Source of the DNA: Ferruginibacter sp.
GTDB lineage: Bacteria; Bacteroidota; Bacteroidia; Chitinophagales; Chitinophagaceae
Direction of reading: 5' to 3'
Assembly (NCBI GenBank): GCA_044220615.1
Contig: JBGAQR010000005.1
Coordinates: 309,974-373,973 of the forward strand
Length of the DNA: 64,000 nucleotides
Below are positions 37,232-52,553 of this stretch, piece by piece. The translations under genes were made by a program, and so were the position numbers. Under the pieces are notes generated by a model. It saw only the letters and a program-made list of their open reading frames with translations. It searched no databases and was not told the origin of the DNA. Position 1 is the first letter of the stretch; every line of letters starts with the position of its first letter.

Positions 37232-37293
37232 TTATTGTATTTTTAGAAAGTGTACTTTTTACACAATTGCCATAACCAAACAAAACGATTGCT

Positions 37294-38616
37294 ATGTCAG
37301 AGATCGCCCAATGGGAAAAGCCCAAATTAAGTCTGTCCCAGATAATCAATATGAGTGTTGGTTTTTTTGGGATCCAGTTTGGATGGGATCTGCAACGTGC
37401 CAACATGGGGCCCATCTATGAACACCTTCATGCAAATGCCGATGAGATACCCCTGCTTTTTTTGGCGGCTCCTTTAACCGGGTTGATCGTGCAGCCTATC
37501 ATTGGTTATATGAGCGACAGAACATGGCACCCAAAGTGGGGCAGAAGAAGACCCTATTTTTTTATAGGTGCTTTGTTTAGTACGATTGCATTGGTGTTCA
37601 TGCCACACAGCAGTGCTCTTTGGATGGCCGCGGGGTTACTTTGGGTGATGGATGTTTTTGGGAACGTTGCCATGGAACCTTTCAGGGCTTTTGTAGCTGA
37701 TAAGCTGAATGAGAAACAGCGTACCCAGGGATTTGTGATGCAAAGCCTGATGATCGGGTTAGGAGGCAGTATAGCTTCTGCATTACCCTGGATGATGACG
37801 AATTGGTTCCATTTCAGCGAGACTGCTGCCAGTGGTGTTATTCCTGATAATGTAAAATGGAGTTTTTATATTGGTGCCTTCTTTTTTCTAAGTGCAGTTT
37901 TGTATACTGTTTTTACATCAAAAGAATATCCGCCGCCCAATATCGGGTTTAAAGAAAAGGTAAAAGAATCAAACAGGGGTTTTGGAGCCGGCATAAATGA
38001 GATATTAAGTGCCATTGGCCATATGCCGAAACGAATGAAGGTATTGTCGCTGGTTCAATTCTTCACATGGCCGGGATTGTTTCTGATGTGGTTTTATTAT
38101 AATGCTGCTGTTGCCCGTAATGTTTTTCATGCAACTGATGTAACAGACCCTCTTTATGGAGAAGGAACTAATTTCGGCGGCCTTACGCTGGCTTTTTATA
38201 ATGTAGTTACATTTTTGTTTGCCTTTGTGTTACCCGGCATTGCAACAAGGCTCGGCCGGAAACTCACTCACAGTATATGCCTGCTATGCGGCGCAATAGG
38301 ACTAATAAGTGTGGCATTTGTTGAAAATAAATACATGTTATATGGTTGTATGACCGGGGTAGGGATTGCCTGGGCAAGTATTTTGTCGATGCCCTATGCC
38401 ATGCTTAGCGGGGTATTACCTGAAAATAAGATCGGTGTATACATGGGCATCTTTAACTTTTTTATAGTTCTTCCTGAGATCATTGCCTCTTTTTGTTTTG
38501 GCTGGATCATGAAGAACCTGCTTGATAATGACCGCTTGGTTGCAGTTCAAATTGGAGGAGGGTTGATGATCATTGCAGCGCTGATCTGTTATTTCTTTAT
38601 TAAAGAAAAAGATTAA
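37294..38616 (+). CDS. MFS sugar transporter (GPH/SLC45-like; probable maltose/maltodextrin importer)
   Basis: 440 aa, 12 predicted TM segments, with the signature DRTWHPKWGRRRPYFFIGA. Lies within the starch locus. Confidence 0.8.
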   Translation: MSEIAQWEKPKLSLSQIINMSVGFFGIQFGWDLQRANMGPIYEHLHANADEIPLLFLAAPLTGLIVQPIIGYMSDRTWHPKWGRRRPYFFIGALFSTIALVFMPHSSALWMAAGLLWVMDVFGNVAMEPFRAFVADKLNEKQRTQGFVMQSLMIGLGGSIASALPWMMTNWFHFSETAASGVIPDNVKWSFYIGAFFFLSAVLYTVFTSKEYPPPNIGFKEKVKESNRGFGAGINEILSAIGHMPKRMKVLSLVQFFTWPGLFLMWFYYNAAVARNVFHATDVTDPLYGEGTNFGGLTLAFYNVVTFLFAFVLPGIATRLGRKLTHSICLLCGAIGLISVAFVENKYMLYGCMTGVGIAWASILSMPYAMLSGVLPENKIGVYMGIFNFFIVLPEIIASFCFGWIMKNLLDNDRLVAVQIGGGLMIIAALICYFFIKEKD

Positions 38617-38618
38617 AG

Positions 38619-40478
38619 ATGAAAAAAATAACACTTTGCATTTTAAGCATCGTTTTTTGTTGTGCAGTTTTTTCGCAAGATGGATATAAATGTTACCCCA
38701 CCCATTGGTGGACAGGTATGAAGTGGAATAAAGTGCAGGTGATGGTACATGGAGATAAAATCGCCGATCATTTTCCCATGATAAAAATGGGGCCGGCAGG
38801 AATAAAGCTGGCAGCAGGCGTAAGCCTTGTTAAGATCAACCGGGTTGAAAATCCCAATTACGTTTTTCTTGACCTGGTAATTGATGCAACAGCTAAACCT
38901 GGCAAGATTAGTTTTCCCTTTGTAAAAAATATCGATCTTAAATATGAATTAAAACCCCGCCGGGCAGGCAATGGTACCACCTATGCAATGGGTGTTACCT
39001 CAAAAGATTTTATGTACCTCATCATGCCCGATCGTTTTAGTAATGGCGATGAAAGCAATGATCGCATCCCCGGGATGAAAGACCAGAGTTTGAAAAGAGA
39101 TACAGTTTATAACAGGCATGGCGGCGATCTGAAAGGAATACAAAATCATCTTGATTACCTTCAATCGCTAGGGGTTACCACGCTGTGGCTTAATCCTGTT
39201 CTGGAGAATGATATGCCCGACCGTACAGAACACGGCTATGCATTTACCGATCATTATAAAGTTGATCCCCGGTTGGGTGGCGATAAAGCGTATCATGATC
39301 TGATAGACGCCACCCATGCGAAAGGAATGAAAATGATCCAGGATGCCGTATATAATCATGTTGGCCTGTATCATTTTACCGTGCAAGACATGCCCATGCA
39401 AGACTGGCTGCACCAATGGCCCGAGTATACCAACACCAGCTATAAAGACCAGACCTTGTTTGATCCGCACGGGAGCAGCATGGAAAAGAAGATAATGGCC
39501 GATGGCTGGTTCACTAAAATGATGCCCGACCTCAATCAACACAACCCCTTTGTTGCAAATTTTTTAATTGAACATGCTTTGTGGACAGTGGAGGAGTTTG
39601 GTATCGACGGATGGCGTATTGATACCTATGCCTATAACGACCTGGAATTTATGAACCGTTGCAATAAAGCATTGGAGGATGAGTATCCAAAGATCACCCT
39701 GTTTGGAGAAACCTGGGTACATGGAGTGATCAACCAGAGTTATTTTGTTCAGAATAATTACAACACCCCATTTAAAAGTAACCTGCAGGCGCCAACCGAT
39801 TTTCAAACGCTGTGGAGTATCACCGATGCCATGACGAAAGATTTTGGGTGGACCGATGGGGTGAATAAACTGTATACCGTACTTGCACAGGATTTTGTGT
39901 ATAAAGACCCCATGCGTAATGTTATCTTTTTAGATAACCACGATATCTCTCGTTTCTATTCGGTAATAGGAGAGAATACAATGAAGTATAAAACATCCAT
40001 CAATTGGTTACTTACCTGCCGCGGCATTCCGCAGTTCTATTATGGAGGCGAAATAGGTATGACCGGGGTTACCAGTCCGAACGATGGGTTTGTTCGGCAG
40101 GACTTTCCCGGTGGCTGGCCATCCGACCCGGCAAATAAATTTACCAATGCCGGGAGAACGGATAAGGAAAGAGATATATGGAACCATATAGCCCGGCTGG
40201 CAAACTATCGTAAAAGTTCATCGGCACTTACAACAGGAAAAATGATGCAGTTCCTGCCACAGGACGGGGTGTATGTATATTTTCGCTACAACAACGAGCA
40301 GACCATCATGGTGATCATGAATACGGCAAAGGAAAAGAAGAATGTTACTATGAAACGGTTTGCCGAAAGAACAAATGGATTTACGAGGGTAAAAAACATA
40401 CTTACCGGAACAACAAACGAGCTGGGCGACCTTTCTCTTGAATCATATGACAGTGTTGTATTTGAACTGCTGAAATAA
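38619..40478 (+). CDS. GH13 neopullulanase/cyclomaltodextrinase-like enzyme (SusA-like)
   Basis: 619 aa. N-terminal YPTHWWTGMKWNKVQVMVHG domain. GH13 regions DAVYNHVG, GWRIDTYA, LFGETW and FLDNHDISR. Confidence 0.85.
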   Translation: MKKITLCILSIVFCCAVFSQDGYKCYPTHWWTGMKWNKVQVMVHGDKIADHFPMIKMGPAGIKLAAGVSLVKINRVENPNYVFLDLVIDATAKPGKISFPFVKNIDLKYELKPRRAGNGTTYAMGVTSKDFMYLIMPDRFSNGDESNDRIPGMKDQSLKRDTVYNRHGGDLKGIQNHLDYLQSLGVTTLWLNPVLENDMPDRTEHGYAFTDHYKVDPRLGGDKAYHDLIDATHAKGMKMIQDAVYNHVGLYHFTVQDMPMQDWLHQWPEYTNTSYKDQTLFDPHGSSMEKKIMADGWFTKMMPDLNQHNPFVANFLIEHALWTVEEFGIDGWRIDTYAYNDLEFMNRCNKALEDEYPKITLFGETWVHGVINQSYFVQNNYNTPFKSNLQAPTDFQTLWSITDAMTKDFGWTDGVNKLYTVLAQDFVYKDPMRNVIFLDNHDISRFYSVIGENTMKYKTSINWLLTCRGIPQFYYGGEIGMTGVTSPNDGFVRQDFPGGWPSDPANKFTNAGRTDKERDIWNHIARLANYRKSSSALTTGKMMQFLPQDGVYVYFRYNNEQTIMVIMNTAKEKKNVTMKRFAERTNGFTRVKNILTGTTNELGDLSLESYDSVVFELLK

Positions 40479-40559
40479 TATCCCGGGATCATGTATTGGA
40501 AGTAGCAAAACCAGGTTTCTCAATACCCGTCATTGAATTATTTTGCAATTCTTAAAATA

Positions 40560-43500
40560 ATGTGTTTATTTTACACATTAAAACGATTGCACTTGAAAAA
40601 GCTATTCCTTCTCCTTACTGTATTTTCTATTGCCCATACATTACCAGCGCAACGGTTATTAAGCTGGACGCCTGAATTCCCGGTAGATAATTCAACCCTG
40701 GCCATGACGGTTGATTGTAACAAAGGCAACCAGGGACTCTTGAATTTTGAAGGAGGGAATTCCGCCAATGTATATGTTCATGTAGGACTGATCACTGATT
40801 TAAGTACAAGTCCTACAGACTGGCGCTATGTTAAGTTTACCTGGGGTACTGCTGATCCTGCAGCCAAAGCAACTCCGCTTGGAGCTAATAAGTACCAATA
40901 CACGATCAATAACATCCGCACTTTTTTTGCAGTTCCTGCAGGGGAAACAATTAAAAAGGTCTGTGTCATTTTCAGGAATGCAACCGGAAGTTTAAAACAG
41001 GTTAATTCCGATGGAAGCGATATGTATAACCCGGTGTATGGCAGCAGCGAGTATGGCGTCCGGATAAATCTTCCTCCCTTTGAACCAAGATATATTCCCT
41101 GGATAGAACCCATTAGTGTAAATGTAGGAGGAAGTATAAGTATCACAGGTGTTGCATCTGTCAACTCGAACCTCACTTTAAAGCTGAATGGCAATACCAT
41201 TCAAACGGCAACAAATACAACTACCATTTCTGCCAATCCTGTTATTGCTACAGCCTGCGCCCAACAGGTTTTTTTAGAAGGTAATAACGGCTCGGTTACT
41301 GTAAAAGATTCATTCAGTTTTTATATTCCTCCAACTACCACGGTAGCGCCTTTGCCGGCAGGTGTTCAGGAAGGGATCAACTATCTTCCCGGCAATACCT
41401 CTGTTACATTGGTATTGTATGCGCCCACAAAAAACAATGTAGTGGTGATCGGGGATTTTTCAAACTGGGCTGTTCTATGTTCTAACCAGATGAATAAAAC
41501 TTCTGATGGTAATTATTTCTGGCTAACCATCAATGGCCTTACTCCGGGTACGGAATATGCTTACCAGTACCTCATTGATAACAATATCAAAACGGCCGAT
41601 CCGTATGCACAAAAAGTGCTTGACCCCGACAACGATGGGTTCATTGATGCGGTAACCTATCCCAATCTTAAGCCGTATCCAACTGGCTTAACTACGGGTA
41701 TTGTGAGTGTACTGCAAACAGCCGAGCCGCAATACAACTGGCAGGTGAATAATTTTATCAAACCGGATAAACGAAACCTAGTTGTTTATGAATTACTGAT
41801 ACGTGATTTTACGGCACAGCACAGTTATCAGTCGCTGATCGACTCATTGGCCTATTTAAAGAATATCGGTATCAATGCCATTGAACTGATGCCCATCAAT
41901 GAATTCGATGGCAATGAAAGCTGGGGTTATAACCCATCGTTTTATTTTGCGCCGGATAAATATTATGGAACAAAGAACAAACTGAAAGAGTTCATTGATA
42001 AATGCCACCAGAATGGCATTGCAGTTATACTGGATGTAGTGTATAATCATTGTACGGGCAACGCACCCCAGGCAAAAATGTACTGGGACCCCGTGAACAA
42101 CCGCCCTGCGGCAAACAATCCCTGGTTAAATACAACAGCGCCGCATGCGTATGCATTCTTTAACGACTTTAATCATACTTCTGCAGCCACGCAATACCTG
42201 GTGCAGCGTTCTTTGAGTCATTGGTTAGCCGAATATAAAGTGGATGGCTTCCGGTTCGACCTGGCGAAGGGATTTACACAAACAGCAAGCAATACCACCA
42301 CTATTGAAAATTATGACGCCAGCCGGGTAACAAACCTGAAACGGTATTATGATGGAACTGTTCCGGCAAACCCGGGCACTTATATGATACTGGAATTCCT
42401 TGGCACACTTCCCTGCCAGGAAGAACAGGAATATGCAGCACACGGATTTATGCTTTGGGGCAATAACAATTTTACTTACAACCAATGTACGATGGGGTAT
42501 CCTTCCAATTCGGATATTTCACCGGTAGTTTACAGCGATCCTAAAAGAGCATTTAATAACCCGGCCGAAGTAGGTTATATGGAAAGTCATGACGAAGAGC
42601 GTACGATGTATAAGAACTTAACCTTTGGTAATTCATCCGGAAGTTATAATGTAAAAACACTTTCAACTGCGTTGGCAAGAGAAGAAGCGGCAGCTACGGT
42701 ATTCTTCACGGTACCCGGTCCTAAAATGATATGGCAGTTTGAAGAAAGGGGATACGATATTCCAATAAACTTTGGAGGGTCAAATGTGGCCAATAAACCC
42801 CCGCATTGGGAGTACATGACCATGCAGGACAGGGTACACCTGTACAATACCTATAAAAGTATAATTGCCTTGCGGTTGAATAATCCTGCCATTTTCAATA
42901 ATACATCGTTCACGTATGATTTCAATAATGGAGGAGGCCTTTATAAATTATTCCAGATCGCTGATCCCAACAGCAGCGGATTAAAAATTACAGTAGTTGC
43001 CAATCTTGATGTGGTAGCTCAATCCAGGTCGGTTACTTTTCAATCAACAGGCAGCTGGACAAATTATATCAGCAATGGTACCGGTACCGGCATCAATGGC
43101 GCTACCGGAACAAATTTTTCAGTAACTGCTACAACACAAACCATCAGCCTTCAGCCGGGCGAATATCATATTTATGTCAGCGTACCCGCTTGTGTTACTG
43201 CAGCGCCCACTGCGGTTACCCCGGTTAGCTATTGCCTGGGAGCAACTGCTGTTCCTTTAACTGCTTCAGGAACAAACCTTCTTTGGTATACTACTGCAAC
43301 AGGTGGAACAGGAAGTGCAACGGCTCCAATTCCTTCAACAGCTGCAGTAGGAAGTACAACGTATTATGTAAGTCAAACGGTTGGATGCGAAAGCCCACGT
43401 TTTGCCATCGTAGTTAATGTAACAGCTACTACTGCTGCTCCAACGGTTACCAGTCCGGTTACATACTGCCGCAACTCAACTGCATTACCACTTACAGCAG

Positions 43501-44222
43501 GAGGTACAAATCTTCTTTGGTATACCACGGCAACTGGTGGAACAGGAACTGCCACCGCACCAACTCCATCTACCGCTACGGCGGGAAGTACAACCTATTA
43601 TGTCAGCCAAACCCAAAGTTGTGGTGAAAGCCAGCGGGCCGCTATTACCGTTGTGGTTACTGCTACACCAGCAGCCCCAACTGGTTTGAATGTTACGGGT
43701 ATAACAACAACTTCGGCTGTTTTAAACTGGGCAACAAGTGCCGGTAATTTTTATACCGTAGATTATAAGCCGGCGACTTCGTCTGTCTGGATCAATGCCG
43801 CAACTTCAGTAAGCACGGGTTCTGTCTTGATATCTAATCTCAGTGCTGGTGTAACCTACGACTGGCGGGTAACAGTGAACTGTTCAAATACCCCGATCAA
43901 TAATTATACTACGGGGCAATTCACTGTTAATACTTTCAATAGCCAGATAACGAATATCAGAAATGGATTTGGGCTTAAAATATCGCCGGATCCTGTTAAT
44001 GAGAATCCTTCATTGGATTATATCGTTCCCGGTTCAGGAGAAGTAACGATCATATTGTTCAATTCATTCGGGCAACGTATAAAAACAGTTTTCAGCGCCC
44101 CACAAACGGCCGGACAATACCGGATATCGCTGGCTGGCCAGTTTACTGTCATTGCCCGGGGATGTTATTTCCTGAGGCTGATACAAAACGGTAAGGGACA
44201 TTTTATAAAATTCATTAAGTAA
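40560..44222 (+). CDS. Large multidomain GH13 amylase/pullulanase-like enzyme with 2 Ig-like repeats, an FN3 domain and a T9SS C-terminal sorting domain
   Basis: GH13 regions DVVYNHC, GFRFDLAKG and YMESHDEER, two 78-aa repeats, an FN3 domain (LNVTGITTTSAVLNW...) and a C-terminal beta-rich tail. The start is ambiguous: TTG 40533, ATG 40560, or TTG 40593 (MKKLFLLLTVFSIAHTLPAQ). Confidence 0.8.
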   Translation: MCLFYTLKRLHLKKLFLLLTVFSIAHTLPAQRLLSWTPEFPVDNSTLAMTVDCNKGNQGLLNFEGGNSANVYVHVGLITDLSTSPTDWRYVKFTWGTADPAAKATPLGANKYQYTINNIRTFFAVPAGETIKKVCVIFRNATGSLKQVNSDGSDMYNPVYGSSEYGVRINLPPFEPRYIPWIEPISVNVGGSISITGVASVNSNLTLKLNGNTIQTATNTTTISANPVIATACAQQVFLEGNNGSVTVKDSFSFYIPPTTTVAPLPAGVQEGINYLPGNTSVTLVLYAPTKNNVVVIGDFSNWAVLCSNQMNKTSDGNYFWLTINGLTPGTEYAYQYLIDNNIKTADPYAQKVLDPDNDGFIDAVTYPNLKPYPTGLTTGIVSVLQTAEPQYNWQVNNFIKPDKRNLVVYELLIRDFTAQHSYQSLIDSLAYLKNIGINAIELMPINEFDGNESWGYNPSFYFAPDKYYGTKNKLKEFIDKCHQNGIAVILDVVYNHCTGNAPQAKMYWDPVNNRPAANNPWLNTTAPHAYAFFNDFNHTSAATQYLVQRSLSHWLAEYKVDGFRFDLAKGFTQTASNTTTIENYDASRVTNLKRYYDGTVPANPGTYMILEFLGTLPCQEEQEYAAHGFMLWGNNNFTYNQCTMGYPSNSDISPVVYSDPKRAFNNPAEVGYMESHDEERTMYKNLTFGNSSGSYNVKTLSTALAREEAAATVFFTVPGPKMIWQFEERGYDIPINFGGSNVANKPPHWEYMTMQDRVHLYNTYKSIIALRLNNPAIFNNTSFTYDFNNGGGLYKLFQIADPNSSGLKITVVANLDVVAQSRSVTFQSTGSWTNYISNGTGTGINGATGTNFSVTATTQTISLQPGEYHIYVSVPACVTAAPTAVTPVSYCLGATAVPLTASGTNLLWYTTATGGTGSATAPIPSTAAVGSTTYYVSQTVGCESPRFAIVVNVTATTAAPTVTSPVTYCRNSTALPLTAGGTNLLWYTTATGGTGTATAPTPSTATAGSTTYYVSQTQSCGESQRAAITVVVTATPAAPTGLNVTGITTTSAVLNWATSAGNFYTVDYKPATSSVWINAATSVSTGSVLISNLSAGVTYDWRVTVNCSNTPINNYTTGQFTVNTFNSQITNIRNGFGLKISPDPVNENPSLDYIVPGSGEVTIILFNSFGQRIKTVFSAPQTAGQYRISLAGQFTVIARGCYFLRLIQNGKGHFIKFIK
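43200..43670 (+). repeat. Tandem 234/237-nt coding repeat (two Ig-like modules)
   Basis: AAPTAVTPVSYCLGATAVPLTASGTNLLWYTTATGGTGSA...YYVSQT is repeated as AAPTVTSPVTYCRNSTALPLTAGGTNLLWYTTATGGTGTA...YYVSQT. Confidence 0.85.
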
Positions 44223-44248: not shown

Positions 44249-44989
44249 ATGGCATCCGCAACAAATGGCAACCCGGCAATGAATATTAAAACTCTTCAGG
44301 CCATACAAACAGAAGTGCAAGGCAGTAACCGAATCGCTTTGTCAGTAGACTGTGTGATCTTCGGGTTCGATGAAAACAAACTGAAAGTACTGCTTATCAG
44401 GAGTGACCTGAAAAAATACCAGGGGCTATGGTCGTTGCTGGGAGACCTGGTTGCTGCAAAAGAAGATATTCATGATGCTGCTTATCGCATCCTGAAAGAA
44501 AGAACCGGCCTTGATGATGTTTACCTTGAACAGGTTCATACGTTTGGTTCTGTAAGCCGACACCCGGCTGGCCGGGTGGTTACCGTAGCATATTGCTCGC
44601 TTATAAACGTGCAACACCATAAGCTGAAAATACTGGATAATGAATTGCACTGGCACGATGTGCAGAGTGTTGCCGATCTGGCCTTCGATCACCAGGAGAT
44701 TTTTGAAGCCTGCTACCGGTGGTTGCAGAAAAGGATACAGGAACATCCGCTCGGATTTAACCTGCTGCCCAAAAAATTCTCATTGCGTGACCTTCAGAAT
44801 TTATACGAAGCCATCCTGGATACAAAGATGGACAGGCGGAATTTCAGGAAGAAATTCTTTGCGATGGATTTCCTGATCGATATCGATGAAATGGAACAGG
44901 ACGTGCCCCACCGGCCCGGCAAATTGTATAAGTTCAACTTTGACAAGTACGCCAAAAAGAAGAAAAAATGGGTGGGGATAGACTTCTAA
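44249..44989 (+). CDS. NrtR-like transcriptional regulator (Nudix domain with degenerate Nudix box, plus a C-terminal winged-helix domain)
   Basis: 246 aa. Nudix-like GDLVAAKEDIHDAAYRILKERTGL, where the EE pair is replaced by ER. C-terminal F.L..LQ.LYE.I......RRNFRKK is typical of NrtR-family DNA-binding domains. Confidence 0.75.
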   Translation: MASATNGNPAMNIKTLQAIQTEVQGSNRIALSVDCVIFGFDENKLKVLLIRSDLKKYQGLWSLLGDLVAAKEDIHDAAYRILKERTGLDDVYLEQVHTFGSVSRHPAGRVVTVAYCSLINVQHHKLKILDNELHWHDVQSVADLAFDHQEIFEACYRWLQKRIQEHPLGFNLLPKKFSLRDLQNLYEAILDTKMDRRNFRKKFFAMDFLIDIDEMEQDVPHRPGKLYKFNFDKYAKKKKKWVGIDF

Positions 44990-45120
44990 AAGCCCCTTCC
45001 GGCAGGTTCATCAGGTAAATCCCGGAAAACAGCTATTCCCCGGCCCGTAAGGGTTTAAGGAATCGGGTTTTTCAAAAAAAAATAATTAACAAAAAATTGG
45101 TATTAACGAAAAAAGCCCTA

Positions 45121-45167
45121 CTTTGCGTAAGTTTTACACATTTTGAGTGTGTAAAAAGTACGCAAAG
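45121..45167. promoter_or_regulatory. 47-bp near-perfect palindrome upstream of susC (candidate operator or 5'-UTR hairpin)
   Basis: CTTTGCGTAAGTTTTACACA - TTTTGAG - TGTGTAAAAAGTACGCAAAG. 18 of 20 arm positions are complementary. It ends 35 nt before the susC ATG. Confidence 0.7.
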
Positions 45168-45202
45168 TGATTGCAAATTTTTAAAACGAAACGCTTGTTA
45201 TT

Positions 45203-48184
45203 ATGAGAAACAGTATTAAACAACTCTCTTGCATTTTTTCTTTCTCTCTTTTCGTGTTGTTGTTTCCTGTTGCTGCATTGGCACAAGATGTGGTTACGGG
45301 TAAGGTGACAGACTCTAAAGACGGTTCGCCTGTTTCGGGTGTTACCGTTACAGTGAAAGGAACAAAAACAGTAACACAGACTGCTGCTGACGGCACTTAT
45401 AAAATATCAGCAATGGGAAGTGCAACCTTGGTTTTCACTTCTATTGGGTATGCAAACTATGAAATACTGGTGGGTGGAAAGACATCCATCGATGTAAGTA
45501 TTTCACAGGTTAATCAGCAACTGAATGAAGTAGTGGTGGTTGCCTACGGGTCTAAAAGAAAAGGAGACCTGACGGGTGCCGTTACATCTATTTCAAGTAA
45601 AGATTTTCAAAAAGGGTTCATCCCTTCAGCTGAGCAATTATTGCAGGGCAAGGTTGCCGGTCTGCAGGTGACCAGCGGTGGTGGCACTCCTGGTGGAGGA
45701 AGCCGTATCCGCATTAGGGGCACTTCTTCACTGAATGCAAGCAACGATCCATTGATCGTGATCGATGGCGTGCCGGTGGAAGGAAACAGCATCAATGGAG
45801 GAGGTAACCTGCTTAACAGTATCAACCCAAACGATATCGAGTCAATGACGGTATTGAAGGATGCTTCTGCAACTGCACTCTATGGTTCAAGAGCAACCAA
45901 TGGGGTATTGATCATCACCACAAAAAAAGGAACAAGCGGCAAAATAAAATTCAACTATAACACAACGCTCTCATTGAGCTCAATCGCCAAGAAAGTAGAC
46001 GTATTCAGCGGAGATGAGATACGCAGCATTGTAAATGCCGACGCAACCAAAACGGGCAGCGACGGGTACAAGAAACTGTTGGGTAAGGCAAATACAGACT
46101 GGCAGGACCTAATCTATCAAAAGGCTTTCGGCTGGGACAATAACCTCAGTGCTTCCGGTTCTATCAAGAATGTGCTTCCTTTCCGTCTCTCTGCCGGTTA
46201 CCTGACCCAGGAAGGTATCCTGCTTAACGATAAATTCAACAGGGCTACTGTAGGGCTCAACCTTTCTCCAAAATTATTGAAGGATCATCTTTCTGTGAAC
46301 ATCAATGCGAAGTATGCTAACACCAAGTACCACCATGCAAATGGTGATGCAGTTGGTGCAGCGGCTTCCTTCGACCCAACACAGGATGTTTATGCACCCA
46401 ATAAATACGGCGGATACTTTGAGTGGCTGGATGGTAACGGTCAGCCACAGGGCAACAACGGTAATGCATCCAATCCCAATCCACTGAGTTTACTGAAATT
46501 CCGCAGCAATATCGAAACGATCAACCGGATCATCGGTAATGTGCAGCTTGATTATAAACTGCATTGGCTGCCCGATCTGCATATTCTCGCCAACATCGGC
46601 ATCGATGCTACTACCCAGAATGGAAATGATAATACCGACTCGATCCTCGTGACCAATCAAAGCACCGGCGGAAGGTATGTACAATACAAGCAGAAAAAAC
46701 AAAACACACTCTATGAAGTGTCGTTGTCTTATTCTAAAGAATTAAAGAGCCTTAAAAGTAAATTTGATTTGCTTCTCGGACATGGATACCAGGCCTTCGA
46801 AACAGATGTATTTAACTACGCATCATACAGCCAGGCCGGCAAACTGATTGCAGGCAGCACTCCTGTATTTGCCACCGACAAACAGGAGAACAGGATCGAA
46901 TCCTATTTCGGAAGGCTCAACTATACATTCAATAACAAATACCTGATCACCGGTACCTTAAGAAGAGATGCCAGTTCACGGTTCTCGAAAGATAACCGGG
47001 TTGGTTATTTCCCTTCCGTGGCCGCTGCCTGGAAGATCAAGGATGAGTTCCTGAAAAATGTTCATTTCATAAATGAATTGAAACTGAGGCTTGGATGGGG
47101 TGTTACCGGCCAGCAGGATGGCATCGGTAACTATGGTTATTTGGCAAATTATAGCCAGAGTTCTAATACGGCCCAGTACCAGTTCGGAAATAACTTCTAT
47201 TATTTCTACCGCCCGAGCCCTTATTACCCGAACCTGAAATGGGAAACCACCACTACCCAGAACCTGGGCATCGATTTTGGCTTCCTCAATAACAGGATCT
47301 CCGGTTCGATTGAATTTTACAAAAAGAAAACCAAAGACCTCTTGGCCAGTGTAGGACAAGCACCTGGTCAGAACTTCGATATCCAGTTGCTGAGAAATAT
47401 CGGTAACATGGAGAACAACGGTATCGAATTCAACCTGAATACAACTCCCGTTCGTAAAAAGAACCTGACCTGGGATTTCGGGTTCAACATCACCATGCAG
47501 GATATCAAGATCACGAAACTGCAGGCAATTGTTGATCCAACCTTCATTGGTAACGAAGCAGGAAACATCAGCGGGGGTACCGGTAATACCCTGTTCTATC
47601 ATCAAGTGGGATATGCTCCTAGTACTGCCTATATCAGGCAACAGGTATATGATGCAGTTACCGGAATGCCTATTGAAGGACTTTATGAAGACCTGAACAG
47701 GAACGGCGTTACAGATGATCGTTATTATTACAGTAAAACAAATAACCCACCATTGTTCTTTGGAATTAATACTCAGGTTGTATATAAGAAATGGTTACTC
47801 GGACTTGCAGCGCATGGCACATACAATAACTACCTGTATAATAACTACGCATCACGTACAGGAGTACTTAATGCCATCCAGAATGGTTCCCTGCTTACCA
47901 ACGGATCGAAAGATTACCTGAATACCGGTTTCCGAAATCAGCAGTACTTATCTGATTACTATATGCAGAACGCCTCTTTCCTACGCCTGGATAACATCAA
48001 TATCGGATACAATTTTGGAAAGATCATCCGCAGCAAGGCAACCCTGAGGCTGGGTGCAAGTGTTCAGAATGTGTTTGTAATCACGAAATACAAAGGGCTT
48101 GATCCTGAGAACTCAGGTACAACAGATAATAATATTTATCCACGCCCGAGAGTATTCTCTTTATCAGCAAACCTTGACTTTTGA
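45203..48184 (+). CDS. susC: SusC-type TonB-dependent outer-membrane transporter
   Basis: 993 aa. Signal peptide, carboxypeptidase-regulatory-like domain (VTGKVTDSKDGSPVSGVTVTVKG), plug domain and barrel. C-terminal ...LSANLDF. Confidence 0.92.
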   Translation: MRNSIKQLSCIFSFSLFVLLFPVAALAQDVVTGKVTDSKDGSPVSGVTVTVKGTKTVTQTAADGTYKISAMGSATLVFTSIGYANYEILVGGKTSIDVSISQVNQQLNEVVVVAYGSKRKGDLTGAVTSISSKDFQKGFIPSAEQLLQGKVAGLQVTSGGGTPGGGSRIRIRGTSSLNASNDPLIVIDGVPVEGNSINGGGNLLNSINPNDIESMTVLKDASATALYGSRATNGVLIITTKKGTSGKIKFNYNTTLSLSSIAKKVDVFSGDEIRSIVNADATKTGSDGYKKLLGKANTDWQDLIYQKAFGWDNNLSASGSIKNVLPFRLSAGYLTQEGILLNDKFNRATVGLNLSPKLLKDHLSVNINAKYANTKYHHANGDAVGAAASFDPTQDVYAPNKYGGYFEWLDGNGQPQGNNGNASNPNPLSLLKFRSNIETINRIIGNVQLDYKLHWLPDLHILANIGIDATTQNGNDNTDSILVTNQSTGGRYVQYKQKKQNTLYEVSLSYSKELKSLKSKFDLLLGHGYQAFETDVFNYASYSQAGKLIAGSTPVFATDKQENRIESYFGRLNYTFNNKYLITGTLRRDASSRFSKDNRVGYFPSVAAAWKIKDEFLKNVHFINELKLRLGWGVTGQQDGIGNYGYLANYSQSSNTAQYQFGNNFYYFYRPSPYYPNLKWETTTTQNLGIDFGFLNNRISGSIEFYKKKTKDLLASVGQAPGQNFDIQLLRNIGNMENNGIEFNLNTTPVRKKNLTWDFGFNITMQDIKITKLQAIVDPTFIGNEAGNISGGTGNTLFYHQVGYAPSTAYIRQQVYDAVTGMPIEGLYEDLNRNGVTDDRYYYSKTNNPPLFFGINTQVVYKKWLLGLAAHGTYNNYLYNNYASRTGVLNAIQNGSLLTNGSKDYLNTGFRNQQYLSDYYMQNASFLRLDNINIGYNFGKIIRSKATLRLGASVQNVFVITKYKGLDPENSGTTDNNIYPRPRVFSLSANLDF

Positions 48185-48212
48185 TTCTAACCAAAAAATA
48201 AATTGATTCTAT

Positions 48213-49892
48213 ATGAAAAATAATTCAATAAAATATGCAGGAATAATGGTGACCGCCGCCATTGTACTCGCATCCTGCGCCAAAAAACTCGACCTGCTCC
48301 CGCAGAACGATTTTACCCCTGAGAAGGTATACGCAACACCGGCTGGGTATAAAGGAGTGTTGGCAAAAATTTACGGCGGAATGTCGATCGGTGGCAATAC
48401 CGGACCAAACGGGGCTCCTGACATATCGGGTGGGCTGGATGAAGGATCACAGATCGCATTCATCCGCATGTTCTTCAATTGCGAGGAATTGCCGACAGAA
48501 GAAGCGGTTTGTTTCTGGAACGACCAGACCATCAAAAACTATCATGGCTTCTCTTATACCGCAGATGATCCATTTCTGAAAGGAATGTATGCCCGCCCAA
48601 TCTGGAACATTACCCTGATCAATGAATACCTCAGAGAATCAACTGACGACAAGCTGGCAGAACGTACCATCACCGGAGCAGATGCAGATGCCATCCGTAA
48701 ATCACGTGCCGAGATACGTTTCCTGCGTGCATTTAACTACTGGGCAATGATGGACATTTTCGGTAAATCAACATTCATCACAGAATCATATGGTGTTGCA
48801 CAGAATGAAACACCGCAGGAAATCAGCCGTGCAAATCTTTTCGCTTATATCATGAGCGAACTGAGAGCAGTTGATGGATCGATGGTTGCAGCAAGGTCCG
48901 CCGAGTATGGCAGGGTAGATCAGGCAGCGAACTGGGCATTGCAGGCACGTATTTATCTCAATGCAAATATTTACCTGGGCTCCTCCACCACCTCTTATTA
49001 TGATTCAGCAGTGGCTTATGCACAAAAAGTGATCAATGCAGGATACACACTGAACAGTGCAACTGTAAATGGATACAATGGTTATGCCCAATTATTCATG
49101 GCCGACAATGATAAAAGGACCAATGAGATCGTTTGGGCCATTACCTGCGACGGTTTGAAAACACAAGGCTATGGTAATACCACGTTCCTCGTGAATTGCT
49201 CAAGCGGGGATGACAAAGGATCTGATTATTTCAAAGGCGCAGGTGGCGCAGGCTGGAGAGGATATGTAGCTACAAAAGGATTAGCCAACCTGTTCTCAGA
49301 TCTTACCGGCACAACCGATAAAAGAGCGATGTTCACAACATCAAAATTTGGTGTGAGCGCTACACAAATAGAATTACCTGTTCTGCCCAATGCGAGTGAA
49401 GTGAATTTTCCGGATGCAAGCAGCGGTTTACATATCAATAAATATAAGAACATCCGGTCGGATAATGGGGAGATCAGCGACATCAACAACCGTACGTTCG
49501 CCGATATAGATTTCCCTGTATTCCGTTTGTCTGAAATGTACCTGATCTATGCCGAAGCTGTTTTACGGGGAGGCAACGGAAGCAGCGCTACGGCTCTTCA
49601 GTACGTCAATAATGTACGCACCCGTGCTTACGGAAACACGAGTGGTAATATCACTGCCGGTCAGTTGAATCTGCAGTTCATATTGGATGAGCGTGGAAGG
49701 GAATTGTATTGGGAAGGTCACCGCAGAACAGACCTGATCCGGTATAACCTGCTTACCAGCGGCACTTATGTATGGCCATGGAAAGGTGGTGTAGCTAGCG
49801 GCACAGGTGTGGAAAGCAAGTACAACCTGTTCCCAATACCATCAAGTGCCCGTAACAGTAATCCTAATTTATCTCAAAACCCGGGATTCTAA
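48213..49892 (+). CDS. susD: SusD/RagB-family starch-binding lipoprotein
   Basis: 559 aa. Lipobox LASC. Directly downstream of susC. C-terminal ELYWEGHRRTDLIRY motif. Confidence 0.9.
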   Translation: MKNNSIKYAGIMVTAAIVLASCAKKLDLLPQNDFTPEKVYATPAGYKGVLAKIYGGMSIGGNTGPNGAPDISGGLDEGSQIAFIRMFFNCEELPTEEAVCFWNDQTIKNYHGFSYTADDPFLKGMYARPIWNITLINEYLRESTDDKLAERTITGADADAIRKSRAEIRFLRAFNYWAMMDIFGKSTFITESYGVAQNETPQEISRANLFAYIMSELRAVDGSMVAARSAEYGRVDQAANWALQARIYLNANIYLGSSTTSYYDSAVAYAQKVINAGYTLNSATVNGYNGYAQLFMADNDKRTNEIVWAITCDGLKTQGYGNTTFLVNCSSGDDKGSDYFKGAGGAGWRGYVATKGLANLFSDLTGTTDKRAMFTTSKFGVSATQIELPVLPNASEVNFPDASSGLHINKYKNIRSDNGEISDINNRTFADIDFPVFRLSEMYLIYAEAVLRGGNGSSATALQYVNNVRTRAYGNTSGNITAGQLNLQFILDERGRELYWEGHRRTDLIRYNLLTSGTYVWPWKGGVASGTGVESKYNLFPIPSSARNSNPNLSQNPGF

Positions 49893-49918
49893 ATCGCATA
49901 CTTTTAAAAGCATACTAT

Positions 49919-50737
49919 ATGAAAAATACTTTTAAGACATTACTGTTTTCAATTGTTGCAGCAATTTCATTTTTGTCATGTAAAAAAAACGAGAACAAAG
50001 TATACTATATTGGTGGCACTCCACCATCGCTGAATGCCAACCCAACCACGCCGATGGTATTGTTGATTGCGAACAAAGACAATGAAGCGATGAAGTTTGA
50101 TTGGACCAATCCTAATTACCAGTTCAATACGGGTATCAGTTCACAGGACATTACCTATACACTCCAGTTCGATACTACTGGTTCTAATTTCACCAACCCG
50201 AGCATTGGCCAGAAATCGATCTCTAAAGATCTTTCCGTAACACTTACTGTTAAGGACCTGAATACAATTCTTCTGGGTATGGGATTAGTGGAAAACATGG
50301 CTCATAACATAGAGATCAGGGTTCGGTCTACCATGGCCAACCTGAGTGCCCCGCTTTATTCCAATGTGATCAAAGTGGTGGTTACTCCTTACCTCGATGT
50401 AGTATATCCCGTTCCTGCAAAATTGTACATCACCGGAAGTGCCACACCAGGGAACTGGATGGCAGGTGGCGATCCGGAACTGGTAAGCCAGCGGTTTACT
50501 AAAGTGAGCGCTTCTAAATTTGAACTCACTATTACACTTTCTGCCAATAACTCATTTTTGTTTGTTCCGGTGTATGGAGATTGGGGCAATAAATATGGGT
50601 TTACAGGCCCCAATAACACCAACAATGTGAACGGTGATGATTTTATGCCCAATGGCGGCGATATGAAAGCGCCGAGTGCAACCGGGTCTTATAAAGTAAC
50701 TGTGGATTTCAAAACCGGTAAATATTCGGTTCAATAA
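49919..50737 (+). CDS. susE: SusE-like outer-membrane lipoprotein
   Basis: 272 aa. Lipobox FLSC. N-terminal SusE-type domain (FDWTNPNYQF...YTLQFD). Position after susD. Confidence 0.7.
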   Translation: MKNTFKTLLFSIVAAISFLSCKKNENKVYYIGGTPPSLNANPTTPMVLLIANKDNEAMKFDWTNPNYQFNTGISSQDITYTLQFDTTGSNFTNPSIGQKSISKDLSVTLTVKDLNTILLGMGLVENMAHNIEIRVRSTMANLSAPLYSNVIKVVVTPYLDVVYPVPAKLYITGSATPGNWMAGGDPELVSQRFTKVSASKFELTITLSANNSFLFVPVYGDWGNKYGFTGPNNTNNVNGDDFMPNGGDMKAPSATGSYKVTVDFKTGKYSVQ

Positions 50738-50762
50738 ACTAATAAACACTAAAAAAAACTGT

Positions 50763-52553
50763 ATGAAATATATTTCAAAAATTTTGGCAGCCTTCCTGAT
50801 GATCCTGTTGGCATTCTCAGCCTGCAAAAAAATTGACGTAAGTGAATCTGCAGCTGATTTGCCGGTGTATGAACAAGGTATTTTCCCGGTATTAAGCAGT
50901 TCAGTTGCCACAGTAGCGCCAACTCTTGCGGATTCGAATAATACGGTGATCACGTTTACGTGGACCGATCCGAAACATGCAACAGATTTCTCCAATACCA
51001 AGTTTGTGTTGATTATCGACTCTACCGGTAAAAACTTTGGAGCAGTTAATAATACAAAAACGGTGAATGGAGTTTTGACCACCGGCCTTACTGGCCGCGA
51101 ACTGAATGCCTATCTATTGAACATAGGGTTTAAAGTGGGTGTTTTACAATCGATTGATGTGATGCTGGTGTCATCCTACAAGAATAACAACGACCGACGT
51201 TATTCCAATACGCTCACCATTAAAGTGACCCCATATGTAGATCCTTCTATCCTGGTTTCTCAAAACAGTTCCGTGGTTTGTACATTGCCAAATGCGGCCT
51301 TGCCATCAAATATCTTCTGGTGGACACCAACCTTCACCGGTTATTCAGGAAGTATAACCTATACACTGCAATACGATTCTGCCGGCAAAAATTTTGTGGC
51401 ACCAATCGATATAGCAGTGGGAACATCAATATTGGCAAAGGGATTAACGCAGGGCGAAATGAATACCACGGCATTAAATTCCGGAATTCCGGGCGGTAAC
51501 ACAGGTAAGGTGGAATACCGTATCAAAGGTGTTCTGTCGAACGGAACAATTGTTTATTCCAATGTGGTTACGGTTACCATACAGAGCTATGTACCTATTT
51601 TACGGGTATACCTGCCAGGTGGCTACCAGGGATCAACCGGTAACGGAAATGACTGGGATCCCGGAACGGCTCCTGAATTAATAAGAGACCTTCGTTCTGC
51701 AGTATTCAATAAGATGTACTATACCTATATTTATTTACCTGCCGGTGCCGAGTTCAAGATCACTATCGGCAGAAGCTGGGCAGTAAACTATGGTGGAAGC
51801 GGAGGTAACTTATCTTCTGGCGGCGCTAACCTTAGTGTGCCAGCTGCAGGCTACTATCGTATCTCTGTTGATATAAGCGCTCTCAAATATAACATCATGG
51901 CAGGCAGGATGGGATTTGTGGGCGGAGCAACCGGTGCAGGATGGAATCCTCCGGGCGTATTTCCAACCTATGCATTGGGTAACTCAGGAACCAACCTCTT
52001 CGTTGGTCTTACCAATTTTACTAACGGTGGATGGAAGCTGATCGATAACAATGCCTGGAACAGCGGAAGTAATACCGTTGATGAAACAAGAAGTTATGGT
52101 ACACCGGGTGGTGATGGAAGTACACTGGAAACCAACGGAGCCAACTTCAATGATTATCCTGCTGCAGGCCGGTACCGTGTTATCTGGGATGGACGTGACA
52201 GGGATAATGTAAAATATTTTACAAGCTCCGGAACTGAAATGAGGGTGGTAGGAGATGGTATCAATCAGCCAGGTGTTAACGACTGGGATCCGCCAACATC
52301 GCCACAAATGACATACAGCGGAAATGGTATCTGGACAATAAGCATTACCCTTAAAGCAAATAAGGATATTAAATTCCTGGCTGGTAACGCATGGGGCGCT
52401 TTCGATTATGAAGATAACAGCGGCGGAAGCCAGGCAACCGGAACAGCAAGACCCATTAAGTGGGAAGGAGGATCTAATTTTAAGACCCCGGCTACTGCAG
52501 GAACATACACCATTACTTTAAATGAGAACCTGCAAACGGTAACCATAAACTAA
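50763..52553 (+). CDS. susF: SusF-like outer-membrane starch-binding lipoprotein
   Basis: 596 aa. Lipobox FSAC. Repeated SusE/F-type modules (FTWTDP..., YTLQYDSAGKNF) and C-terminal W/G-rich CBM-like repeats. Confidence 0.65.
   Translation: MKYISKILAAFLMILLAFSACKKIDVSESAADLPVYEQGIFPVLSSSVATVAPTLADSNNTVITFTWTDPKHATDFSNTKFVLIIDSTGKNFGAVNNTKTVNGVLTTGLTGRELNAYLLNIGFKVGVLQSIDVMLVSSYKNNNDRRYSNTLTIKVTPYVDPSILVSQNSSVVCTLPNAALPSNIFWWTPTFTGYSGSITYTLQYDSAGKNFVAPIDIAVGTSILAKGLTQGEMNTTALNSGIPGGNTGKVEYRIKGVLSNGTIVYSNVVTVTIQSYVPILRVYLPGGYQGSTGNGNDWDPGTAPELIRDLRSAVFNKMYYTYIYLPAGAEFKITIGRSWAVNYGGSGGNLSSGGANLSVPAAGYYRISVDISALKYNIMAGRMGFVGGATGAGWNPPGVFPTYALGNSGTNLFVGLTNFTNGGWKLIDNNAWNSGSNTVDETRSYGTPGGDGSTLETNGANFNDYPAAGRYRVIWDGRDRDNVKYFTSSGTEMRVVGDGINQPGVNDWDPPTSPQMTYSGNGIWTISITLKANKDIKFLAGNAWGAFDYEDNSGGSQATGTARPIKWEGGSNFKTPATAGTYTITLNENLQTVTIN

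Follow-up and report, generated by a model that had tools for sequence, protein, structure and literature searches.

The window, a 64,000-nt stretch of Ferruginibacter sp. DNA, carries on its forward strand a susC-susD-susE-susF-like operon (45203 to 52553) that we predict to be regulated. The first gene (45203-48184) encodes a SusC-type TonB receptor with Pfam Plug and TonB barrel domains and is followed by those for SusD (SusD_RagB) and for two SusE-domain proteins, the SusE and SusF of an earlier sequence-only reading of this DNA, the second of which also has a pullulanase X25 domain. Directly upstream, on the same strand, lies a regulator gene (44249-44989) for a protein of 246 aa that combines a Nudix-like sensor with an NrtR/AraR winged-helix domain (NrtR_WHD, 1.5e-25; NUDIX, 3.4e-11; AraR_C, 7.1e-11), and tblastn identified it as the single NrtR-family gene in the genome. 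Pfam thus bore out the NrtR-like regulator and susC operon that the sequence-only reading had named as neighbours. Two GH13 genes precede the regulator, one cyclomaltodextrinase-like (38619-40478; Alpha-amylase/Cyc-maltodext) and the other with additional CBM48, Ig-like and FN3 domains (40533-44222), and upstream of both is an MFS transporter gene (37294-38616; MFS_1).

The gap between regulator and susC contains an inverted repeat with a left arm, CTTTGCGTAAGTTTTACACA (45121-45140), a spacer, TTTTGAG, and a right arm, TGTGTAAAAAGTACGCAAAG (45148-45167). Re-reading of the letters at 45121-45167 confirmed the near-perfect 47-bp palindrome reported earlier, with 18 of 20 arm positions complementary and the AG/AG centre as the sole mismatch. 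A repeat search added one base to each arm (45120-45140 and 45148-45168), giving arms of 21 nt that are 90% complementary (19/21) and 7 nt apart. The placement, previously put at about 130 nt past the regulator gene and 35 nt ahead of the susC start codon, was measured as 131 nt from the regulator stop (44989) to the start of the repeat and 35 nt from its end to the ATG (45203). Inverted repeats with at least 18 of 20 complementary positions and a spacer of 3-12 nt occur at 46 loci in the genome searched, a 4.16-Mb assembly of six contigs. Five locally shuffled copies of a 437-kb contig yielded none of this quality, so an inverted repeat of such quality is not due to chance. The remaining 45 genomic repeats are mostly terminator-like or members of repeat families, and the one in front of susC is the only one of the 46 with a GTGT...ACAC basis. 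A fuzzy search of the genome found no second copy of the whole 21-nt arm, the next best match (17/21, at C6:867685) having an unrelated context. The genome also holds a palindromic repeat family, AACCTATAAGGTCTGC...GCAGACCTTATAGGTT, REP-like in appearance, at C2:448213, C2:623768, C6:343379, C6:869925, C6:911113 and C6:914873.

A total of 101 loci were analysed, comprising 20 orthologous loci from the same genus, 80 from named genome records and that of the window, with regulator identity of at least 70% throughout; susC is the next gene after the regulator in 87 of these. The regulator-susC gap contains the 17-bp palindrome TGTGTA-N5-TACACA (core GTGT-N7-ACAC) one or more times at 86 of the 87 loci, all Ferruginibacter/Chitinophagaceae and hence, as related genomes, not independent samples. 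The gap holds one copy at 38 loci, two at 44 and three at 4, and tandem copies at the 48 multi-site loci are spaced, centre to centre, by 23 bp (11 cases), 24 bp (26) or 25 bp (11). A locus with three copies is L049 of F. paludis CECT 8366. Two copies with centres 24 bp apart are found in the window. Predicted operator site 1, TGCGTAAGTTTTACACA (45124-45140), has a 17-bp palindromic core of the form GYGT-N7-ACAC, here with GCGT; its position is kept in 86/87 regulator-susC loci, and the 23-mer scored by the weight matrix (45121-45143; 24.2 bits) is the top match in the entire 4.16-Mb genome. Predicted operator site 2, TGTGTAAAAAGTACGCA (45148-45164), scores 18.6 bits over the 23-mer 45145-45167. 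The exact GTGT-N7-ACAC core occurs at two further sites in the window (37249-37265 and 40561-40577) and is also claimed for site 2; the left half of site 1 reads GCGT and the right half of site 2 ACGC, and the same T/C variation is seen in orthologous sites. The consensus of 29 orthologous sites is AATTGTGTAAAATTTACACAATT. The string TTTTACACATT recurs in the window, where the sites were located by weight-matrix scan.

Each 17-bp copy is its own reverse complement, and two neighbouring copies therefore read automatically as a single long palindrome. Judged by its sequence, the 47-bp palindrome resolves into a neighbouring pair of 17-bp palindromic sites, of which the inverted repeat of 21 + 7 + 21 nt (45120-45168) is a by-product, and two adjacent sites imply two dimers. 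Because 38 of the 87 loci have one site only, the long palindrome is not itself the conserved feature, and the conservation ahead of orthologous susC genes that the sequence-only reading had called for applies to the 17-bp unit and not to the long palindrome. The methodological point is that a long 'perfect' palindrome can consist simply of two adjoining short palindromic operators.

Promoters of Bacteroidetes, as described in Bacteroides and Flavobacterium, follow the pattern TTG-N19-TAnnTTTG. On the sense strand, TAnnTTTG is enriched 5-10-fold within positions -40 to -1 of the genes of this genome, which indicates that it uses this -7 box. A promoter of the Bacteroidetes type is predicted for susC on the forward strand (45097-45126), in which a -33 TTG (45097-45099) is separated by 19 nt from a -7 box, TACTTTGC (45119-45126). 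This box matches only four of the six specified TAnnTTTG positions and runs into the 5' edge of site 1; transcription is accordingly predicted to start at about 45130-45135, inside site 1 and the left arm. When 79 distinct orthologous promoters are aligned with site 1 as the anchor, they show, in order, an A-tract, TTAACAA at -35 to -29, TT(G) at -24 to -22, a second A-tract and TA at -2 to -1, followed by nnTTTG running into the operator. The TTAACAA element, located in the window at 45086-45092 (forward strand) upstream of the -33 box, is conserved at -35 to -29 from site 1 across the genus; at two loci (L012 and L087) the susC promoter has it in the perfectly palindromic form TTAACAATTAATTGTTAA, which overlaps the -33 region. 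A second factor might bind here, or the element might extend the promoter, and a genome-wide search for TTAACAA-N4-TTGTTAA was uninformative (448 matches at three or fewer mismatches), the motif being AT-rich and of low complexity. A sigma-70 promoter scan, ill-suited to Bacteroidetes promoters, gave one sigma-70-like match, inside the regulator gene. In the alignment of 24 tandem pairs, T is favoured on the forward strand at the centre of site 1 (AnTTTT) and A at that of site 2 (AAAAAn), which creates a family-wide pseudo-dyad around the spacer of the tandem pair; this could reflect an embedded -7-like TAnnTTTT or DNA bending by two dimers.

The sequence-only reading had also allowed that a transcribed palindrome forms a susC leader hairpin of 20 bp that could attenuate or stabilise the mRNA; the rival considered here has the palindrome act chiefly at the RNA level, by attenuating transcription or by stabilising or masking the mRNA. 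A full transcript would indeed fold strongly (-28.4 kcal/mol; z -4.3 versus shuffles), and as no terminator turned up in a simple scan of the regulator-susC gap, read-through transcripts could carry the whole palindrome. The window pair, moreover, ranks first in self-complementarity among 45 distinct tandem pairs (19/23 against a mean of 15.3, a difference of about 1.9 SD), and together with its nearest relatives (L031-L033) spans an arm complementarity of 17-19/23 against that family mean; these relatives score 17-18 because their outer half-sites are mirrored (CTTTGYGTA ... TACGCAAAG). Across the family, however, there is no evidence that the long hairpin is itself selected: complementarity between sites 1 and 2 is the same within loci as between them (15.33/23 in both cases; 45 pairs, permutation p 0.50), the helix is 75.4% paired in the 24 pairs with 24-bp spacing against 75.5% with shuffled partners, the covariation score is 0.076 against 0.079 after shuffling (24 aligned tandem pairs), and a model with two small hairpins scores below shuffles. 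The 38 single-site loci have no long hairpin, and the predicted transcription start falls inside the left arm. The bases that would pair are the sequence-invariant GTGT/ACAC of a motif that elsewhere occurs as a single site at promoters, the invariant columns of the tandem-pair alignment being the G, T, A / T, A, C of the half-sites; core bases that are invariant rather than covarying fit protein recognition. No Rfam family exceeded the threshold, the region 44900-45300 giving only sub-threshold chance matches to AgrB, MIR7696 and Phe_leader (E 0.36-0.9). We therefore set the leader hairpin aside as very improbable and treat the high self-complementarity of the window pair as lineage-specific drift, with a small opening for an added RNA role in this lineage.

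To define the wider set of sites, a 23-column weight matrix was built from 29 sites of other genomes and used to scan all 4.16 Mb. Eight matches of at least 17 bits were obtained against 0.6 expected from locally shuffled genomes, and six of at least 19 bits against 0.2, counts which share one gene-family source with the matrix although the window's genome was excluded from it. Seven of the eight precede alpha-glucan genes. Besides sites 1 and 2, the window contains a predicted third operator, TGTGTTTATTTTACACA (40561-40577; 22.7 bits), with its centre some 24 nt before TTG 40593, the probable start of the GH13/CBM48 amylase gene, and a predicted fourth, AGTGTACTTTTTACACA (37249-37265; 24.1 bits), upstream of the MFS transporter and GH13 genes. 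The site in front of the GH13/CBM48 gene lies at the same place in all 38 of the 38 orthologous loci that include the gene start. As the regulator gene follows the GH13/CBM48 gene by 26 nt, the regulator is probably autoregulated through the operator at 40561-40577. In the open reading frame list the GH13/CBM48 gene (1229 aa) starts at TTG 40533, and the operator would then fall inside the gene; a start at TTG 40593 gives MKKLFLLLTVFSIAHT... and a signal peptide, and orthologues begin at a matching ATG, TTG or GTG.

Elsewhere in the genome, matches precede a second SusC-SusD-GH13 polysaccharide utilisation locus (PUL; C4:540410, 19.9 bits), a GH97 alpha-glucosidase gene (C5:419052, 19.5 bits) and a glycogen-phosphorylase-like gene (C6:389264, 17.4 bits); one match (19.1 bits) lies between two convergent genes and is probably spurious. 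Taken together, the sites outline a coherent alpha-glucan regulon, in the way that comparative genomics commonly reveals the regulon of a transcription factor. The second alpha-glucan PUL (C4:539270-546661) comprises a SusC of 1045 aa, SusD and a GH13 amylase, and combines the NrtR-type site at C4:540410 with a LacI-family gene in divergent orientation and a palindrome of the LacI type, CGAAAACGTTTTCG, an arrangement that suggests dual control. A further string, AAAACGATTG(C), is found 2-3 nt ahead of the start codon in the four best regulon operons, as well as before a GH92-like gene and a few others (37284-37291 and 40582-40589 in the window; C5:419098, C4:540464 and C6:375751). This string may serve in the 5'-UTR or in translation initiation, or may be targeted by a second regulator or an sRNA. 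As a candidate for a genome-wide enriched motif, the 8-mer AACGATTG was rejected (149 occurrences versus about 153 expected), being distinguished only by its position before a few starts.

The best solved relative of the regulator is BtAraR of Bacteroides thetaiotaomicron (5bs6/5ddg; E 3.7e-53, 41% identity). Alignment of the two places the Nudix box at D66-x5-E72-x7-R80-I-L-K-E84-R-T-G-L, compared with the signature GX5EX7REUXEEXGU, the first glycine and two of the three REUXEE glutamates being replaced, much as in BtAraR (RVLAEL). Such degeneration has been described for the AraR group (PMC4666351) and implies that the domain is a sensor rather than a hydrolase. The intercalating Arg180 and the residues Asn181, Lys184 and Arg205 are identical in the two proteins, as is Arg183, while Lys179 is changed to Arg and Lys204 to His, so that four of six base-contacting residues are kept, all six (K179, R180, N181, K184, K204 and R205) being absolutely conserved among AraR orthologues (PMC4666351). 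The BtAraR (BT0354) motif spans 21 bp, and in the co-crystal DNA (PDB 5DDG), GCAAAAGTGTTACTTTTACACCCATGC, the protein recognises a GTGT and an ACAC that are 7 bp apart (PMC4666351). The araM (BT0356) promoter has two tandem 21-bp semipalindromic sites with 3 bp between them, equivalent to 24 bp centre to centre, to which one and two dimers bind in EMSA, and L-arabinose frees the protein (PMC4666351; Chang et al. 2015).

The match to BtAraR in core, 24-bp spacing and homology, together with the presence of only this one NrtR-family gene in the genome, ties the sites to the adjacent regulator, and we consider the palindrome, with a probability of about 0.85 on this sequence evidence, to be a tandem pair of DNA operators for the neighbouring NrtR-family, AraR-like repressor. 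The earlier proposal of an operator for the dimeric regulator next door is thereby strongly supported by comparative evidence and the likeness to the BtAraR operator, and corrected as to its unit, which is two 17-bp sites in place of one of 47 bp.

Since the tie between the sites and the neighbouring gene is comparative, drawn from sequence, they might instead be operators of another DNA-binding protein such as a global regulator of the Crp/Fnr type, whose sites are likewise GTG...CAC-armed palindromes near carbon-source promoters, and the palindromes here do resemble the TGTGnA...TnCACA form of CRP-type sites. The CRP consensus is GTG-N8-CAC (TGTGA-N6-TCACA), whereas the present sites have the GTG-N9-CAC geometry of the BtAraR crystal DNA, a difference of 1 bp in arm spacing. 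The motif is also local to one regulon, with only about eight sites, nearly all at alpha-glucan genes, which does not suit a global regulator; it accompanies the regulator gene in 86/87 loci, and most of the residues through which BtAraR contacts the bases of its operator are kept in this protein, which belongs to a different family from CRP/FNR. We judge a different factor to be less probable still than the hairpin. Least probable of all is an intrinsic terminator or insulator closing the GH13/CBM48-regulator transcript: the stem is strong, lies downstream of the regulator gene and has no other terminator called in the gap, but the scan makes no call on the palindrome either, no T-run stands directly behind the stem (GTGATTGCAAATTTTT begins 1 nt past it, the T-run 12 nt further), conserved promoter elements lie upstream, the long stem is not conserved, and a better, if weak, candidate is the structured stretch at about 45035-45073 with GGGTTTTTC at its end (z -0.9).

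Returning to the tandem operators, the switch we propose is of a type already known, wired here, by the evidence of the sites, to starch rather than arabinose genes; the element, which its DNA features assign to the BtAraR operator type, is an ordinary one on an uncharacterised, starch-linked regulator clade. Each palindrome of 17-21 bp would be expected to take one regulator dimer through the winged-helix domains, with site 1 lying over the predicted start and the edge of the predicted -7 box, and site 2 over the first 15-35 transcribed bases. In the uninduced state the promoter would be occluded by two dimers and RNA polymerase stopped. Maltose, a maltooligosaccharide or glucose, as a product of alpha-glucan breakdown, would then bind the catalytically dead Nudix domain and rotate the DNA-binding domains so that the protein is released, as L-arabinose does with BtAraR. 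The same regulator would see single sites at the MFS-GH13 operon, the GH13/CBM48-regulator operon, the GH97 alpha-glucosidase gene and the second alpha-glucan PUL. Binding, repression, the transcription start and the effector are points that we infer from sequence and by analogy.

Several features bear on the effector. The arabinose-binding Arg34 of BtAraR aligns with Ser52 in the present regulator and the GGF pocket motif with GDL, while Arg86 and His131 are kept. A paralogue of the same genus linked to araA/GH51 retains both Arg34 and GGF, and the absence of these features from the starch-linked protein therefore points to a different sugar, likely, and most simply, a starch breakdown product. 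The predicted regulon content also favours an alpha-glucan product. Both the regulon and the changes at Arg34 and GGF argue against classing the protein as AraR proper, that is, as an L-arabinose-responsive orthologue of BT0354. Identity to BtAraR is 47% for the araA-linked paralogue, 42% for one linked to an NAMPT-like gene and 41% for the window regulator. The genus, with L025 and L027-L029 of other genomes taken into account, has three NrtR-family clades, one starch-linked, one AraR-like and linked to araA/GH51, and one beside an NAMPT-like gene, the last with a recognition helix, DKRNFRKR, the same as that of BtAraR; the window's genome has only the starch-linked clade. No operator site was found at the distant paralogues (L022-L030), which are linked instead to araA/GH51 or to the NAMPT-like gene. 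At eight loci checked (L055, L070, L075-L077, L095, L098 and L108) the regulator, 75-82% identical, lies apart from any starch gene. At five loci that have no susC (L095, L096, L098, L099 and L108), one operator-like site precedes the regulator by about 230 nt, a position that suggests stand-alone, autoregulated copies.

Regulation of PULs outside gut Bacteroides is poorly charted, and the sites described here provide a concrete cis-element and predicted regulon for starch use in Ferruginibacter, a genus abundant in freshwater, soil and activated sludge. They can be used to annotate starch regulons across hundreds of Chitinophagaceae MAGs, and would carry Nudix-fold sugar sensing of the AraR/XylR type beyond pentoses to alpha-glucans. 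We lean, by a modest balance of probability, towards a broader proposal in which this clade forms a third specificity class of the sugar-sensing NrtR/AraR branch, a cytoplasmic alpha-glucan sensor that replaces SusR-type control in Ferruginibacter and governs the whole starch regulon (two PULs, the MFS importer, GH13 and GH97) from GTGT-N7-ACAC sites, to which a susC 5' hairpin might have been added in this lineage. AraR and XylR are the published sugar-specific members of the NrtR family (PMC4666351, PMC3878776), and among the papers searched none described an NrtR-family starch regulator.

Of the known systems, BtAraR is the closest. The two regulators have the same plan, a degenerate Nudix sensor joined to an NrtR-type winged helix, with the recognition-helix Asn and Lys and the intercalating Arg kept in Ferruginibacter, and their operators share the GTGT-N7-ACAC core, the tandem sites 24 bp apart ahead of a sugar-utilisation operon and the single sites at further operons, SusC/SusD PULs included. 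They differ in that identity is only 41%, in host family (here Chitinophagaceae) and in regulon, which is predicted to be alpha-glucan/starch here and is arabinose in BtAraR. Classical NrtR of Shewanella oneidensis belongs to the same protein family with the same domain plan, and its dimer binds a palindrome of about 21 bp and is released by a ligand in the Nudix domain (Rodionov et al. 2008, PMC2330246). It responds, however, to ADP-ribose and controls NAD genes (PMC2330246), in contrast to the starch genes predicted here, and recognition-helix spacing and DNA pitch differ between classical NrtR and AraR (PMC4666351). The physiological target, susC/D/E/F-type genes together with GH13 and GH97 genes, is that of SusR in B. 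thetaiotaomicron. The starch system of that species is induced by starch products, SusR being a membrane-spanning activator that senses periplasmic maltose. SusR-like regulators are named in PMC3878776; the candidate described here is by contrast predicted to be a small cytoplasmic repressor, of another protein family and acting at palindromic operators.
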